A stretch of DNA of 64,000 nt from a virus (IMGVR_UViG_3300018080_000111); one strand, 5' to 3'; shown: positions 4,464 to 53,861, numbered from the stretch's first letter. The notes: a model not told the origin generated them from the letters alone. Made by a program: numbers and translations.

Positions 4464-4759
4464 AAATTCTCCTCTGCAGCAATCGCGTCAACTGCATCCT
4501 TTGCTGTTTTTAAGTCCACCAGGCACTCATCTCGATATAGTTTGATCGCCTGGAATTTCCTATTCTGTCTGAGAAGACCAATTATTTGATCCTTTAAAGT
4601 GGGGTGGAGTTTCCGATATGTGGATACCAGAGTTCCCGGATTCTCTTGAGCCAGACTGAGAAGAAAGGATACACTGTCAAATTTGTCCGGATTAAATCGG
4701 ACCTTAGAAATGATTTGAATTGCCTCTTGAAAACTTTGAGCATCTTTGGATAGTTTCAT
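4460..4759 (-). CDS. Protein with ribosomal L7/L12 C-terminal-like domain
   Basis: KFQAIKLYRDECLVDLKTAKDAVDAI matches the AIKxxRxxxGxxLKEAKxxVD pattern. Confidence 0.6.
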   Translation of the reverse strand: MKLSKDAQSFQEAIQIISKVRFNPDKFDSVSFLLSLAQENPGTLVSTYRKLHPTLKDQIIGLLRQNRKFQAIKLYRDECLVDLKTAKDAVDAIAAEENL

Positions 4760-12907: not shown

Positions 12908-13528
12908 TTATACTTCTCCCAATCCTTTTCGTGTAAATTCTCTTTTTAGTATTCTTGAAACCCGTTCAATTTTTCTTTCCAGGATACTCCGATTTTTACC
13001 CCATCGATTTCCAAAAGTCCTGAGTATTTTATTTATGCTCATATTTCGGATATGCACAACCTCCATAAGGTGATATTCTTCTTTACTGATCCTATCAGCC
13101 TTAATAAGGTCATGAATAATTTTTTGAATCTCTTCGCACATTAAACGGGTTTCAGTATCATCCTCTTCTACATAGTCTGGATGCTCATATAGATATCTTT
13201 CTACATCAAAGTTTTTTACTTTATACATTCGAAAGAGTTCATTTCGGACACAGAGAAGGATCCATCTTGGGATCGCTTTGGAATGAACCTCAGGATCATA
13301 TCTTTTAATTGTAATTCCCAAACCCACTATTGCCGTCTGATAAGCATCCTGTAATAATTGAGGCATAGGTTCCTCAAAGTAGTATATGCGGGAAAACTGG
13401 ACAATCAGTTCCGAAATTAGTGGGTCTACCCTTTCCAATATCTTTGTAAATACTTCTTGGGTAGGATTCTTTTTTTGTTGGCAAAACAACTCCTTTAAAA
13501 TCTCAAGTTGATCCTCATGGAAGTGCAT
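12908..13528 (-). CDS. Sigma-70-like RNA polymerase factor
   Basis: LLQDAYQTAIVGL...RYDPE...WILLCVRNEL (region 2) plus C-terminal HTH-like region. Confidence 0.65.
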   Translation of the reverse strand: MHFHEDQLEILKELFCQQKKNPTQEVFTKILERVDPLISELIVQFSRIYYFEEPMPQLLQDAYQTAIVGLGITIKRYDPEVHSKAIPRWILLCVRNELFRMYKVKNFDVERYLYEHPDYVEEDDTETRLMCEEIQKIIHDLIKADRISKEEYHLMEVVHIRNMSINKILRTFGNRWGKNRSILERKIERVSRILKREFTRKGLGEV

Positions 13529-13639
13529 TCTCCTTCTCCTCTACATAGTTACTACTTTCCTTTGAATTAAAACAAAAAACCCTTCCCCACTTTCATTTCT
13601 GAAAGAAACAACAAATGTTGCCAAAGGGTAATAATTGAC

Positions 13640-13727
13640 TCCTCCCTTGGATATGGCTGGGAGTAACAAAACATAATTTAACTTAACTAAACTTAACGAA
13701 ATGCAACAGAACTCAACTTAGTTCGAT
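13640..13727 (-). ncRNA. Pentamer array B (11 perfect RTT-NN units plus 2 degenerate) with 3' hairpin; putative gapped guide RNA
   Basis: Plus-strand units from 13663: gtaac aaaac ataat ttaac ttaac taaac ttaac gaaat gcaac agaac tcaac; 27 bp (13640-13666) identical to 27698-27724. Confidence 0.8.
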
Positions 13728-13730
13728 GAA

Positions 13731-15695
13731 TTATTTCTGGGATTTTCGGAAAATGGATTTATACTTACTCGCCAAATCATTTCTTAAGGCCTCTTCCTTC
13801 TTTTCTTCAATTTTTTTCTTTCCACCCTTAATCGATCCTTCATCTACCCACCATAACCCCGAGAGAGGTTCTTCCTTCTTCTTTTCAAAGGCCTTTTTCA
13901 TTATATCTATATTTGGTGGGACTTTACATTCTTTCCGGGCCATCTCAACAGATACCACCACAGAGTCAGAACAGTCTTTGGATCCTTCTAAAACCAGTTC
14001 ATCCAGGCTTCCATCCTCTTTGGTAATAGATATGACCGCTTCCTTTGGATGATCTATCTTATTTGTATTGGGATCTTCTTCTAAGTGGGATAATTCAAAA
14101 TGCAGATAACCATGTCGATGACAAACCCAGCGACCATCTTTAACAAGATCATCCCTAAAACTTCGGTAATACTGGGGATTCTTATCAATAGATTCGTATT
14201 TACATTTAATTCCTGCTTTTTCAAGAATCTGGGTTGTGTCGGTACTTGCTAATTTGAGGTCAAAAGTGGCCAATGCTATATTAAACCCATAACTCTTCTT
14301 TAAAAGAATAAGAAATCTCCGTACTTTGGTTAAATCAATTTCATCATCTTCCGGGGCTTTAATTCTCATTACAAAATCTGTTTCTATGACTGGAACTTTA
14401 TCAACCCCAATACTTCCATCCTCCAAAGTTCTATTATTTTCCTTCCATCCAGAAACGCAGGACATTGCCAGTCCATATGCATCATGAGAAAAGGCGATGT
14501 CTCCATGAACATATCTTGGGATGTGCCGAGGAACCCTAATCTTATCCACATTTAGGAAATGAATTAATTCTTTTTCTTCCTCTTTCATCCCCAGATAAAT
14601 AGTGTTCATACTTACTGGATCTTCCTTTTTTGGGTCATAACAGTCCAATAGATATTTTTCGGATTTGAATAGTCGACTTTTCCTTAGGTAGCTGGCACTG
14701 ATACCTGCCAGGTCTCTTAACGCACCCGTGATGTCTTCTTGGAATGCTCTTCGAAAAACCTCGGGAACCTGTATAACTGTGAATCCGTTCGTAGTAGCTT
14801 CCTTTATCTCCTCTTTGGTTTCTATTATTTTAGACGGAGAATATATGTCGCCAATTCTGACTGGAAATTTGGAACAGCCCTCAAATTCCTTATCGTCAGC
14901 TTCCCATTTAGGAATATCAACAATATGGACGGCTTTATGTCCCTTTTTCTTTGCGATGAAAGCATTTACAAAGGATAGGTTTTCCTGCTTTGATGCGACA
15001 ATAAAGAATTTTCCTAAGGATTGTTCATTGATTACAAATCTATCCTCAAATCTACGAAGGGCAGACTCAACCGATTTAATTACTTTCTCCCTTTGTTTTA
15101 TTCCTGCCTTGGGGGAATCAACCTCATCCATAAGGGCTGCAATTACATCCTGGCCTAATTCTGCCTGTGAATAAGGGGAGGCAAGAATGTAATCAAATAG
15201 ATCAAAATGTATCTGAGGTTCCAAATTTCCTGAAATTCTTCCTTTGTTCCTAAACCACTCAGAGGATAGCAGATGGTTCTGGAGAACCCGGAATCCTTTA
15301 CTATCCCCTAGGGTTTTATTTAGGTTAAAAAAGACAATGGCCATTTTTCCGCCTGCCTGTTTGCGATAATATGCAAAAGGGTTACGTAAACAAAGGTGTA
15401 AATACATCACGAATGCTATCCCCAGAATAGCTGCACGGGATTTTCCTATTCCAATGGCACCAGTAAGGACGGGGAGGTATTTGGTGGGTTCACCCATTAG
15501 AAAGGATAGTTCTCTTCTCCACACAGGAAAGATGGCCTTTCCAGGAATCCCATCCTCATTCTTGGTAATTTTTCCTAAGAATTCCTCTCTTCGTAGAAAT
15601 TCCAAAAAGGAGACGGGGGTTTCCTTGTAATGTATTTTTGTGGTTGCTGACGTGAAGGTCGTTAACCAGCGTTGATCAGGATTCTTCTGGTTCAT
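13731..15695 (-). CDS. terL: Terminase large subunit
   Basis: Walker A VLTGAIGIGKS, Walker B ALMDEVD, RNase H-like HGDIAFSHDAYG and KDCSDSV. Confidence 0.85.
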   Translation of the reverse strand: MNQKNPDQRWLTTFTSATTKIHYKETPVSFLEFLRREEFLGKITKNEDGIPGKAIFPVWRRELSFLMGEPTKYLPVLTGAIGIGKSRAAILGIAFVMYLHLCLRNPFAYYRKQAGGKMAIVFFNLNKTLGDSKGFRVLQNHLLSSEWFRNKGRISGNLEPQIHFDLFDYILASPYSQAELGQDVIAALMDEVDSPKAGIKQREKVIKSVESALRRFEDRFVINEQSLGKFFIVASKQENLSFVNAFIAKKKGHKAVHIVDIPKWEADDKEFEGCSKFPVRIGDIYSPSKIIETKEEIKEATTNGFTVIQVPEVFRRAFQEDITGALRDLAGISASYLRKSRLFKSEKYLLDCYDPKKEDPVSMNTIYLGMKEEEKELIHFLNVDKIRVPRHIPRYVHGDIAFSHDAYGLAMSCVSGWKENNRTLEDGSIGVDKVPVIETDFVMRIKAPEDDEIDLTKVRRFLILLKKSYGFNIALATFDLKLASTDTTQILEKAGIKCKYESIDKNPQYYRSFRDDLVKDGRWVCHRHGYLHFELSHLEEDPNTNKIDHPKEAVISITKEDGSLDELVLEGSKDCSDSVVVSVEMARKECKVPPNIDIMKKAFEKKKEEPLSGLWWVDEGSIKGGKKKIEEKKEEALRNDLASKYKSIFRKSQK

Positions 15696-25624: not shown

Positions 25625-26685
25625 ACCCTCGCTTTTCTCTTCTCAGTTTTATGAAGTTCTTGCCAGGTTTTCCAGATTTCTTCACGAAGTTCTTTCTCCT
25701 TATTATTTTCTTCAATATATTGAATCCACTCTACTCGAGTTTTTTCTTCATCAAATATTTTTATTGTGGTTGTTTTATTCTTTGCTTTTTGATCTCCATT
25801 TTGGAGAATATTAAGAAATTGGATATTTGTGGAGATGTCATCTAGGCCATAGGAGAATAAGATTCGGAATCTTCCTTCTTTGAATGGGGGGGCAACCTTG
25901 TTCTTCGTAATCTTGAATTTTACCCAGATTCCAATTGGGCTTCCTTCCTTGTTTTTAATCCCTGAAAGGTGCTTAAGATGTATTTGAATTGAACTATAAA
26001 ATTCCAGAGCTCTTCCACCGGAGGTAACCTCTTTGTTCGCCGAAAAAGGTCCTGCTCCGATATTATCGCGAGTTTGATCTATACAAAATAGAGTTGTATT
26101 GCTTTCCGCAAGAGCAAATAAATACTTTCGGAATCCTTTGGACATCTGTTTGGCTCTGGAGGTTCCGTACGTCCCGTCCATCATACTTTCTTCCAATTCG
26201 ACCTGGGTGGGCAACGCGCTGACACTGTCAACTACTACTATTTTCGATTCTCTGTTTAGAGGATCCTTCTTTTTGATTTGTCCAGTAGGAGTCTTATTAT
26301 AGATGATATCTGAAAGATATACATCAAAAAACTCCTCTAGGGTGGAAGGATGTCCAACAATCACTTTATCACAATCTAGTCCATATAAGGATGCAAAATG
26401 AGGATCCAAAGTATGTTCTATATCAGCATAATATGCTTTTTTTCCAGAACGTTGGGCATATCCACAAACCATTGTTGCTAAGACGGATTTAGAAGTACTT
26501 CCTCCCCCAAAGACGTGGACTATTCTACCAACCGGAATACCACCCGGATATTGGTTTGCAAGAGCTATATCTAGAGTCGTACATCCGGTAGAAAAGAAAT
26601 TGCGGACTCCCGGAAGTCCAATAATATCTGAGGATTGTTTTGCAGTCTCTTTAATCGTATCTTCTATTTTTTCATTTTTAGACAT
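25618..26685 (-). CDS. recA: RecA/UvsX-like recombinase
   Basis: STGCTTLDIAL, GIPVGRIVHVFGGGSTSKS, VVVDSVSAL, SGGRALEFYSS, KNKVAPPF; start set at MSKNEK. Confidence 0.92.
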   Translation of the reverse strand: MSKNEKIEDTIKETAKQSSDIIGLPGVRNFFSTGCTTLDIALANQYPGGIPVGRIVHVFGGGSTSKSVLATMVCGYAQRSGKKAYYADIEHTLDPHFASLYGLDCDKVIVGHPSTLEEFFDVYLSDIIYNKTPTGQIKKKDPLNRESKIVVVDSVSALPTQVELEESMMDGTYGTSRAKQMSKGFRKYLFALAESNTTLFCIDQTRDNIGAGPFSANKEVTSGGRALEFYSSIQIHLKHLSGIKNKEGSPIGIWVKFKITKNKVAPPFKEGRFRILFSYGLDDISTNIQFLNILQNGDQKAKNKTTTIKIFDEEKTRVEWIQYIEENNKEKELREEIWKTWQELHKTEKRKARVW

Positions 26686-27262
26686 TTTTATCCACCATCC
26701 TCTCAACTGAAAATCTTCCAAAAGTTCCACAGGAAGGTGCACCTGGCCTCCAATGACCTATTCCAATAAATTCACCAGCAACCTGCAAATGTTCCAAAAC
26801 AATTTGTTCATTTAGGGCCCCAGCAATTGTAGGATAAACCACTGTAAGAGTTCCTTCCCATTTAGGGATCTTTGGGTATCTTCTTGAAATCCTTCCTCCA
26901 TCTGGTTTTCCATTAGAGGAGACAAAAGATTTTCTTCCTTGAATTGTATCTTTGGTAAGTTCGGTAACTATATCTCCCTCAATTTGTATCAATCTAATAT
27001 AATGGACTAAACCTTTTCCTCTTTTTCCTCCTCCTACTCTTTTTCCTAAAAGTTTGGCAGCAGGCTCCAGAGTTCTCTTTAGAAGAAAACCTGGGATGAT
27101 TACCTTTCCATCCTCATTGTAATGGGCTCTTTCCTTCCAATACCTCTCTTCAAATTGTTGAGGGGTTTCACCCTCTTCTTTTTCCTGATCGATGTATTGA
27201 TCAAACAGAACAGGACTGATACTTTTAAACTTTATTTTGATTCGTTTAACTAATTCATCCAT
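26678..27262 (-). CDS. Stand-alone RAMP/Cas7-like protein (Vipr-like), putative guide-binding filament subunit
   Basis: N-terminal IKFKSISPVLF, IIPGFLLKRTL (cf. iPGSslKG of Csm3/Cas7 RAMPs), C-terminal Gly-rich loop GEFIGIGHWRP...GTFGRFSVE; no other cas genes in the window. Confidence 0.72.
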   Translation of the reverse strand: MDELVKRIKIKFKSISPVLFDQYIDQEKEEGETPQQFEERYWKERAHYNEDGKVIIPGFLLKRTLEPAAKLLGKRVGGGKRGKGLVHYIRLIQIEGDIVTELTKDTIQGRKSFVSSNGKPDGGRISRRYPKIPKWEGTLTVVYPTIAGALNEQIVLEHLQVAGEFIGIGHWRPGAPSCGTFGRFSVERMVDKNV

Positions 27263-27698
27263 CTTTCTTCTCACTGTAAAAGGCAAATTTCAATAACTTC
27301 TTGAATTCTTTATCTTCTTTCTCTTTCAAACAACTATTCATTAAAGGAAGGAAACTAACCCCATTCTCTTTACAAATAAAGGACTTCTTCTTATCCCTTG
27401 CCATTTGTTTCCTATCCGTAAGATGCTGGAATCCTCCTGGCTCTATTGCACATACTAACTTTCCGTGTCGGAATACTGAAATGTCAATATGTGCATTTTT
27501 GTTCTTCCAGAAACTCTTGTATTTAGATGGCTCAGGAAAGAGTTCATATAGAGGCTGTTTTACAACAAAAGCCAGTTTTGGAAAACTTCGTTGTAGCCAA
27601 CAAACGAACTCCTCAATTGTTTTATTATCCGAATACATAAAGTAAAACCCCGACCAAGCATAATAATATGCAAGCACAATCGCTATCGGAAAATACAT
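27255..27698 (-). CDS. PD-(D/E)XK-like endonuclease (DUF559/DUF2726-like)
   Basis: HIDISV...AIEPGGFQH...QMARDKKKSFICKENGV; the SD is the 3' arm of the array hairpin; the stop overlaps the RAMP gene start. Confidence 0.55.
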   Translation of the reverse strand: MYFPIAIVLAYYYAWSGFYFMYSDNKTIEEFVCWLQRSFPKLAFVVKQPLYELFPEPSKYKSFWKNKNAHIDISVFRHGKLVCAIEPGGFQHLTDRKQMARDKKKSFICKENGVSFLPLMNSCLKEKEDKEFKKLLKFAFYSEKKDG

Positions 27699-27800
27699 CC
27701 TCCCTTGGATATGGCTGGGAGTAATAAAATGGAACGGAACGCAACACAACTTAACTTAATTTAAAACAATGCAACTTAACAAAACTTAATTCAACATAAT
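27698..27800 (-). ncRNA. Pentamer array A (16 RTT-NN units) with 3' hairpin; putative gapped guide RNA
   Basis: 27721-27800 parses exactly into 16 NN-AAY units on the plus strand (one unit ttaaa), followed on the minus strand by the CTCCC-N12-GGGAG hairpin shared with array B. Confidence 0.85.
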
Positions 27801-52266: not shown

Positions 52267-53747
52267 TTTTCTACTCCCCCATACTCTTGAATATAGGCCA
52301 TAACTTCTGTCACGAAGTCAAACCTCTCAGATCGGTTCTTTAAAGTTCTAGGTTCCACCGAGCTCTTCATAATCAAATCCACAACCAGACAGGTATTTTT
52401 TTGTCCTTTTCGATGGATTCGTCCCGTAGTTTGCTTCCGGGACAATGGAGAAGGAGTCGGACTAAAATTAAGTATAGTGCTTGATGCGGTTCCATCCCAT
52501 CCTTCCGCCCCGGCCCCCCGTTGGACTAAGATACATTTTACTTTCTCTTCTTGAGTAAATCTTTTTACGCTTTCGGTTCGTTCCTTTAAATCTTGCCCTC
52601 CATAGATTCTTGAATACAAATATTTTTCTTTTTCCAAGGCCCTTTGGATCATATTAACTTCCTCCTTGAAGTAATAGAATATTATAACTTTCCCCGAAAT
52701 ATCCTCCAGGAAGTCTATTAAGGATTCTATCTTTGGGTTTTGTTTTAGGTAATATGTTTGAGTCGGTCCATCCTCTGTCTTGTAATATAGAAAGCCTAAA
52801 GGTAGTTGCCTAAGAAGTCGGGACTTAAGTTTTTTAAACTTATCTTCATCCTCATTCAATTCTGTAGGTTCCAATTTTACAATGGTTCCGTTTAGGGTAA
52901 TAGATGGTTGAGTTATTATCGCGTCTTGTAGTTTCAGATACCCTTTTGATGGATTTACCTCCCGGACTATTTCCTGAATCTCTGGAAGATCAAAGCATTC
53001 TTCTCTGTCGAAGCTGATGGATGTTTTTGAAATTTGTTCCAGGATTTTTTCTTTGGCTCCCTTTTTAAGTTTCCAGTCAAATACCACGGGGTAAAAATAC
53101 CTATTCCTATAAGCAAAGAAACTGGTCCCCAGGGTTCTTCCGAGATCAATCACTCTATAGATATTAAAGGCTTCGAGAAGAGAATTGTCAATTGGTGTTC
53201 CGGTAAGTCCTATTACATTCTTTGATAGCTTGGATAACTGATGACAGATAATACTTTGAAGGGATTTGTAACTTTTGCATTTATGAATCTCATCCAGTAT
53301 TATACAATCAAATTTGTGGATGAAGGAGGAGTAATTGATCTTCCAACCTTTTCCTTTCATCAATTTACAATATACTGTTTTTAATCCTTCATAATTGATT
53401 ATAAAAATATCCCTTTTCTTTTTTAATAGAGACCGACGATGTTTTCCTGATCCTAAAAGGAATTCATGAGAGTAGTCAGTATACTTGGAGATATCCCTTT
53501 CCCAGGCACTAAAAGCAGAGGAGGGACAAACTACCAGAATTTTCTTATTTTCCCACAGTTGAGTTGTCCAGAGAGCCGTGAGGGTTTTCCCTGTACCAAC
53601 ACCATGCAAAAATGCACAACGGGAGGAGGCCGCTGCGAAGGCCATGGAAATAAGTTGATGTCTCATCGGGGATAGTTTAAATGGGAAATCCCCAAAGATA
53701 TCATCTAACTCTTCCTTTATCAGTTTTTTATAGTCGAAGGTTCTCAT
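52263..53747 (-). CDS. SNF2-like superfamily 2 helicase
   Basis: HGVGTGKT, INYEGL, ILDEIH, LTGTP, QTTGRIHRKGQ. Confidence 0.88.
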   Translation of the reverse strand: MRTFDYKKLIKEELDDIFGDFPFKLSPMRHQLISMAFAAASSRCAFLHGVGTGKTLTALWTTQLWENKKILVVCPSSAFSAWERDISKYTDYSHEFLLGSGKHRRSLLKKKRDIFIINYEGLKTVYCKLMKGKGWKINYSSFIHKFDCIILDEIHKCKSYKSLQSIICHQLSKLSKNVIGLTGTPIDNSLLEAFNIYRVIDLGRTLGTSFFAYRNRYFYPVVFDWKLKKGAKEKILEQISKTSISFDREECFDLPEIQEIVREVNPSKGYLKLQDAIITQPSITLNGTIVKLEPTELNEDEDKFKKLKSRLLRQLPLGFLYYKTEDGPTQTYYLKQNPKIESLIDFLEDISGKVIIFYYFKEEVNMIQRALEKEKYLYSRIYGGQDLKERTESVKRFTQEEKVKCILVQRGAGAEGWDGTASSTILNFSPTPSPLSRKQTTGRIHRKGQKNTCLVVDLIMKSSVEPRTLKNRSERFDFVTEVMAYIQEYGGVEK

Positions 53748-53766
53748 TATCTTTTACTACAAATAG

Positions 53767-53829
53767 AATTTGTGGACGAAGGAGGAGAATTTGGTCTTCC
53801 AACCTTTTCCTTTCATCAATTTACAATAT
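53767..53829 (-). repeat. 63-bp near-copy (59/63) of helicase segment 53311-53373 at the TnpB guide position
   Basis: The 35 TnpB-proximal bp (53795-53829) are identical to 53339-53373; 4 mismatches lie distal. Confidence 0.9.
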
Positions 53830-53861
53830 TCGGATCTTTTCTTTTCAACAGGCTCCGAATG

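Follow-up and report, generated by a model that had tools for sequence, protein, structure and literature searches.

A solo guide array of an RTT-type VIPR system behind the terminase gene of an uncultured T4-like phage, probably aimed at the terminase gene of a sibling phage

On the minus strand of the viral DNA IMGVR_UViG_3300018080_000111, an array of five-base units lies directly behind the gene for the large terminase subunit (terL), and it raises the question of what such an array reads and why it stands at this place. We analyzed the whole stretch of 64,000 nucleotides (the window), which belongs to a T4-like myovirus from sediment. The array, here called array B, has the build of the guide RNAs (vrRNAs) of VIPR, a CRISPR-like RNA-guided DNA binder described in preprints of 2026. 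A VIPR system has a minimal RAMP protein (Vipr) and vrRNAs of 9-16 units, each a fixed GGY triplet plus two variable bases (NN), with an invariant structured tail; only the dinucleotides after the fixed triplet should be displayed, and they pair with double-stranded DNA (dsDNA) with every third target base skipped, so that codon positions 1 and 2 are read (10.64898/2026.04.26.720920, 10.64898/2026.04.26.720927). Our reading is that array B is probably a solo vrRNA of a VIPR system with RTT (GTT or ATT) as its triplet, aimed at the terL gene of a sibling phage and mismatched to the terL gene beside it.

Array B and its perfect site in a sibling phage

The features around array B are as follows.
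13663..13717, minus strand: array B, repeat tract of a solo vrRNA, 11 RTT+NN units, read from the sequence
13640..13662, minus strand: tail of the array B vrRNA, a 23-nt hairpin (stem CUCCC/GGGAG, 12-nt loop, then GA), from fold prediction
13572..13639, minus strand: 3' extension of the solo cassette, a branched stem closed by ACCCUU/AAGGGU and then a run of six U
13731..15695, minus strand: terL, large terminase of a divergent family, 654 aa, named by tblastn
13749..13778, minus strand: resident imperfect target site in terL, codons D-L-A-S-K-Y-K-S-I-F

Read from 13717 to 13663, the array has nine GTT and two ATT triplets, each followed by two variable bases. The ten programmable dinucleotides are GA CT GC TC AA TA AA AA AT TT, and the last one (13664-13663) is AC, which is invariant in every array of the clade. 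The original prediction had listed the same ten core dinucleotides, but its leading GA and AA have no RTT on their 5' side and its final AC belongs to the constant part. After the pentamers comes TCCC, 12 nt, and GGGA. The 27-nt end of array B (13640-13666) is identical, with 0 mismatches, to the end of a second array in the window, array A (27698-27724), where shuffled sequences lead one to expect 0 such matches. In relatives the tail stem is exchanged by compensatory pairs (CCCAC/GUGGG, CUGCC/GGCAG, CUCUC/GAGAG, CCGCC/GGCGG), and no pseudoknot was seen. A phase-aware scan of the window for a period of five found arrays A and B, both on the minus strand, and no third array. The regular spacing of triplets every 5 nt had at first suggested a binding site for a TRAP-like ring protein, and this guess was dropped after the VIPR preprints were found to match.

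Array B begins 13 nt past the terL stop and lies between terL and a sigma-like gene, which starts at 13528. It has the tail and no adjacent vipr or vap gene, as is characteristic of a solo vrRNA (Lopez et al. 2026), and the vipr gene of the window is 13 kb away. The branched stem and the U6 run that follow the tail may form a terminator-like structure, as the predicted fold suggests; a simple terminator scan gave no call there. By alignment, this extension of about 70 nt is common to array B and a solo vrRNA of a sibling phage and is absent from array A, so we treat the solo cassette as a distinct form. A scan of IMG/VR with the extension gave matches in sibling contigs only, and a scan with a tail-plus-repeat pattern gave 0 matches, because the last triplet of the sibling array is degenerate and did not fit so strict a pattern. 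A T4-late-like TATAAAT inside the resident terL site was not enriched ahead of genes, and we make no promoter claim for it. The gene that follows the cassette (12908-13528, minus strand) has a weak sigma-70/extracytoplasmic-function (ECF)-like match (E 4e-6) and is possibly a gp55-like late sigma factor; its homologue directly abuts terL in the sibling.

The 654-aa gene gave no match to Pfam, PHROG, NCBIfam or PDB sequences, and its name holds because tblastn matched residues 3-565 to 281 phage records that carry a large-terminase annotation (E 6e-45). The site that resembles guide B lies beyond this matched region, in a lineage-specific C-terminal tail, and all of the approximately 30 relatives retrieved share its last residues, [FY]Kx[IL]F[KR]K[SA]Q. 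With one skipped base, the best site for guide B in the window is 13778-13749, in frame, on the same strand and 35 nt upstream of the array. It agrees with the guide at 15/20 read bases (75%) and in 7/10 units; the count of 8 of 11 units first given for 13749-13781, with one more codon, was correct. Skip lengths of 0, 2 and 3 gave background matches or the array itself only, and the skip rule deduced earlier from this window is the published one-base skip of VIPR. Of the three discordant codons, two are synonymous switches of codon family: the resident gene has TTG (Leu) where the guide reads the Leu codons CTN, and AGT (Ser) where it reads the Ser codons TCN. The third is TCC in place of AAN and puts Ser where the sibling has Asn.

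As a score, this match is not above chance: permuted guides reached 15/20 somewhere in the 64-kb window in 84% of trials, and seven units in 17%. Its position is not random, since only 0.3% of 200-nt windows hold a match as good as that of guide B at terL. The interpretation proposed at the outset is supported, with the caveat that its in-window match of 8/11 units is not significant by score alone.

What carries the assignment is a site outside the window. The closest relatives of terL (73% identity) are in two IMG/VR contigs, which are present as JGI metagenome records too, and their orthologous codons are GAT CTC GCA TCA AAA TAC AAG AAT ATT TTT. This is a perfect match to guide B in frame, with 20/20 read bases and 10/10 units, and it includes the CTN-GCN-TCN that the original prediction had expected in related terL genes, as CTC GCA TCA. 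Across 2.9 million IMG/VR contigs the ten-unit pattern occurred in these two sibling contigs only. It occurred eight times in 596 Gb of prokaryote genomes, with 0 matches in a TerL-like gene, and these eight were taken as chance background; more distant terL genes match guide B at 75% or less. The sibling with the perfect site has no array behind terL, a point that the original prediction had asked to check: about 20 nt separate its terL stop from the gene homologous to the one after the cassette in the window, where the same junction in the window measures about 200 nt and contains the cassette. A sliding identity profile of the window and sibling terL genes gave no clear co-conversion tract. 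The sibling terL reading frame (contig L001, ending at 4728, 1094 aa) is extended in frame by an insert of about 430 aa that follows approximately residue 83, near Walker A; the window terL does not have this insert, which is probably an intein.

The VIPR operon and guide A

The presumed protein partner is encoded just ahead of uvsX, in an operon that runs from array A through the nuclease-like gene to vipr.
27698..27800, minus strand: array A, 16 RTT+NN units (27721-27800) and tail (27698-27720), heading the vap-vipr operon
27255..27638, minus strand: 127-aa accessory gene lying between array A and vipr; predicted fold of a PD-(D/E)xK nuclease, Vsr/DUF559-like
26678..27262, minus strand: vipr, 194-aa RAMP protein, presumed partner of arrays A and B on the basis of its fold and its array-bearing homologues
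25882..25926, minus strand: site in the resident uvsX that agrees with guide A at 23/30 read bases (77%), WVKFKITKNKVAPPF

The AlphaFold2 (AF2) model of Vipr had a mean confidence (pLDDT) of 88.5. In a Foldseek search of 2.3 million clusters of the AlphaFold database (AFDB), the top match was X1U2U4 (E 8e-13, TM-scores 0.75/0.81, root-mean-square deviation 2.8), and the matches in the PDB were type VII Cas7 and Csm3. X1U2U4 is the reference Vipr in bioRxiv 10.64898/2026.10.21.760802, and the protein thus agrees with the definition of a Vipr as a minimal RAMP with an RRM core, a glycine-rich loop and a thumb. The protein has a conserved Gly-rich region near its C-terminus (GxGHWRPG...GxxGRF) and about 30 metagenomic homologues, and it belongs to no Pfam family. 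No relatives were found in an IMG/VR search for related loci, and tblastn found none in cultured phages. All 7 of the 7 contigs with Vipr homologues bear arrays of the same build. Over 10 clade arrays, RTT accounts for 132/143 triplets (92%) and the NN position uses all 16 dinucleotides, and each array closes with the constant AC and a short hairpin. In one relative (L016:9616-9740), the database call of the Vipr homologue (227 aa) begins inside the vrRNA array, and its first approximately 37 residues are translated pentamers; this is an annotation artefact that could mislead family alignments. In another (L043:4463-4552 and 4657-4707), the array comes after vipr, and its best same-strand match, 23/34, lies in the first codons of the downstream DnaB-like gene, with a score that is not significant by itself.

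The accessory gene overlaps the start of vipr. Its AF2 model (pLDDT 89.9) aligned by VIA-align to the DUF559-type endonuclease 3hrl (Z 9.3), to Vsr 1cw0 (Z 9.2, 21% identity over 104 aa) and to the catalytic domain of the homing endonuclease I-Bth0305I (Z 8.7), and its invariant residues are H50, D52, E66, PGG, H72 and D75. Pfam gave a weak match to DUF2726, and Foldseek against the PDB gave weak matches only (best E 5e-3). Fold similarity of this moderate strength suggests a Vsr-like nuclease.

Guide A spells K-A-V-K-N-K-V-A-P-P-F, the loop-2 motif of RecA/UvsX, and its exact core occurred in two IMG/VR contigs only, in recA/uvsX genes and in frame both times. It agrees with the sibling uvsX at 83%. 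The VIPR paper calls a target at an NN match of at least 80%; guide B at its own terL (75%) and guide A at its own uvsX (77%) both lie below this threshold, and neither is called a self target. The operon stands immediately upstream of the resident uvsX, as segA stands beside uvsX in T4.

The window thus holds an RTT-type VIPR operon and, 13 kb from it, a solo vrRNA. Because the two tails are identical and the window has a single vipr gene at this distance, it is plausible from the sequence that the window's Vipr serves array B in trans.

Guides beside resident alleles and the possible role of array B

The idea that a guide is inserted near the resident homologue of its target was found to recur in relatives. 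For 11 clade arrays directly downstream of a protein gene, we set the highest-scoring one-skip match within 200 nt upstream of the array against every remaining 200-nt window at that locus. Five of the 11 stood out, where about 0.1 would be expected by chance; in each of the five the match is in frame, toward the 3' end of the preceding gene and 9-150 nt ahead of the array.
Window array B against terL: 15/20, p 0.003
Sibling solo array (L008) against a RuvC-like resolvase gene: 18/24, p 0.004
L012: 21/32, p 0.013
L016, array 1: 20/30, p <0.002
L046: 27/36, p 0.003

All five matches are imperfect (66-75%), and the mismatches at the sibling resolvase include a Ser AGY/TCN switch. Exact-pattern scans for targets of the sibling guide and of the L046 guide gave 0 matches each. 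In the three VIPR preprints we found no mention of a guide adjoining the resident allele of its target. The sibling array (L008:12188-12282, minus strand; IMGVR_UViG_3300013133_000021) is a solo vrRNA with the same tail type and 3' extension, adjoining the resolvase gene upstream of it, and after it comes a homologue of the nuclease-like accessory gene that is shorter at the C-terminus. Its guide matches the window's resolvase at only 17/24, and no reciprocal targeting was seen.

We infer the following course for array B. It would be transcribed on the minus strand within or just after the terL transcript, ending at the terminator-like structure, and its RNA would be coated in trans by Vipr. 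By analogy with the SUSP1 structures, protomers of the protein encoded at 26678-27262 would each bind one RTT triplet, and the hairpin common to arrays A and B would cap the filament at its 3' end. The filament would display ten dinucleotides, for which the dsDNA target is GAxCTxGCxTCxAAxTAxAAxAAxATxTT, the terL-end codons D-L-A-S-K-Y-K-(N/K)-I-F. Guide B has the same sense as the mRNA and would therefore pair with the template DNA strand, which fits DNA rather than mRNA targeting. During co-infection the terL allele of a rival would be bound and, with the Vsr-like accessory nuclease, possibly nicked or cut, while the resident terL, at less than 80% match, would be spared. With the guide directly behind the immune allele, guide and immunity would stay linked; on a minimal reading of the adjacency, this linkage stops the guide from recombining onto a sensitive allele.

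Several points weigh against aiming at the sibling terL. A scan for sigma-70 promoters on the minus strand near array B gave nothing usable, and a search for RNA runs with this phage found none. Loading onto the resident Vipr is presumed, and an RTT-type system may tolerate 5/20 mismatches. The perfect site is known in one sibling lineage from two metagenomes, and since the two terL genes share ancestry, the extra evidence comes from the three discordant units only, which we estimate at about 20- to 50-fold. Finally, TerL acts in trans, and silencing the rival's copy alone seems to exclude poorly if the terminases are interchangeable. This weak payoff suggests that simple repression is not the whole story, and the nuclease fold and the homing-like layout gain weight from it.

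It is possible, though we hold it only tentatively, that the solo vrRNAs of this VIPR clade are RNA-guided elements of "intronless homing" or allele drive, each placed immediately 3' of a target allele that is itself immune. Together with the Vsr-like nuclease, Vipr provided in trans would break or block the sensitive allele in a co-infecting sibling, and recombinational repair would copy the immune allele and the guide cassette into the rival genome. This much likelihood is given to it because of the nuclease-fold accessory gene and a layout like that of the free-standing homing endonucleases of T4. In one lineage the layout is present, with a perfect site and a 20-nt junction in the sibling, and with three altered units and about 200 nt that contain the cassette in the window.

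Other explanations would give the array a different role, or none. Array B might be a hijacking guide, one of the "guns for hire", which would mainly load onto Vipr made by a VIPR-positive sibling during co-infection and turn it on that sibling's terL. Cross-loading is plausible in view of the sibling's solo vrRNA, with its nearly identical tail and the same 3' extension, and published solo vrRNAs of satellites and VIPR-null phages do redirect a foreign Vipr in the SUSP1 system; but the window phage has an intact Vipr of its own and an array A with the same tail, so that a foreign protein is unneeded, and the sibling fragment (37.6 kb, 24% complete) yielded no vipr. We consider hijacking unlikely, and it is compatible with the targeting of the sibling terL by the window's own system. 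About equally improbable is a cis regulator that binds weakly at the 3' end of its own terL and tunes read-through into the sigma-like late gene, or autoregulates the cassette. Some CRISPR systems do regulate through partially matching natural guides. Matches to the gene immediately upstream that are never perfect, at 66-75% in the five clade arrays, would suit such a role, as would the 77% of guide A at the resident uvsX, but the 20/20 site is in a sibling that lacks the cassette, and the two synonymous codon-family switches in the resident site suggest escape, not tuning. The published system has no self matches of at least 80% and loses silencing when NN pairing is perturbed.

The array could also be an inert relic, a repeat that recombination left behind and that has decayed, with a chance resemblance to terL; the chance-level score of the in-window match would agree with this. 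Against it, all 11 triplets are intact, the end is identical to that of array A at 27/27 nt, the 3' extension is conserved in the sibling solo array, and the perfect matches in IMG/VR lie solely at the orthologous terL codons; we regard this explanation as very improbable.

Relation to known systems

The VIPR family was already known in 2026, and what is new in this locus is the triplet, the tail, the accessory gene and the layout of a solo guide adjacent to its target. The closest known form is type II VIPR of Escherichia phage SUSP1 and a Pseudomonas fulva prophage (Vipr, vap1 and vrRNAs), which has a small single-RRM RAMP protein as well. In both, 9-16 units of five bases, three of them fixed and two variable, precede a structured 3' tail that is constant, one base is skipped at the codon wobble position, the targets lie in genes of competing phages and no self match reaches 80%. 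However, the window has RTT where SUSP1-type units have GGY, its tail is a plain 23-nt hairpin of 5 bp with no evident pseudoknot, and its accessory gene has a Vsr-like nuclease fold instead of the DNA-binding vap1. Its Vipr is undetectable by sequence from cultured phages, and its host phage is uncultured. Arrays with non-canonical triplets (GAC, CAC, WGT, TGH) are also known; they have a period of five, approximately 10 repeats, a neighboring Vipr-like fold and non-GGY units, as here, but RTT is not among the triplets named in the available text (10.64898/2026.10.21.760802).

Solo vrRNAs of F5 satellites and of VIPR-null SUSP1-like phages are likewise remote from vipr and match themselves less well than a rival (10.64898/2026.10.15.759431). 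Array B differs from them in that its genome is VIPR-positive, with vipr 13 kb away, and in that its target would be an allele of a core structural gene, terL, where theirs are vipr, other vrRNAs, satellites or host repeats. A further difference is its place, immediately after the resident copy of the gene that it reads.

T4-like phages carry free-standing homing endonucleases beside core genes (SegA/uvsX, SegG/gene 32, SegE/uvsW, MobE/nrdB), which cause marker exclusion (PMC2988022). The solo cassette resembles them as a small intergenic insertion between core genes, beside the gene attacked in relatives; relatives without it keep an intact site, the resident allele differs, and the conserved targets include uvsX. 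In contrast, recognition here would rest on an RNA guide and Vipr in trans, not on a protein of the cassette itself, and cleavage, gene conversion and preferential inheritance are hypothetical.

The natural biology of VIPR comes so far from one coliphage-satellite pair. Array B and the sibling terL add a clean natural pair of guide and target, from two sibling T4-like phages and in an essential packaging gene. The pair bears on self-avoidance: when wobble bases are not read, a gene can slip past the guide silently mainly by switching between the two codon families of Leu or of Ser, and among the other residues only Arg offers this. A fixed RTT triplet bears on how Vipr reads its repeats. The layout that recurs in 5/11 arrays and the Vsr-like nuclease in the operon make RNA-guided homing or marker exclusion testable, and if the homing reading were true, it would be an RNA-guided counterpart of Seg/Mob marker exclusion.

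Elsewhere in the window, a 77-nt direct repeat (53306-53382 and 53762-53838, 87% identity) lies beside a TnpB gene and may be part of a second RNA-guided system, with a guide region that copies a neighboring gene.

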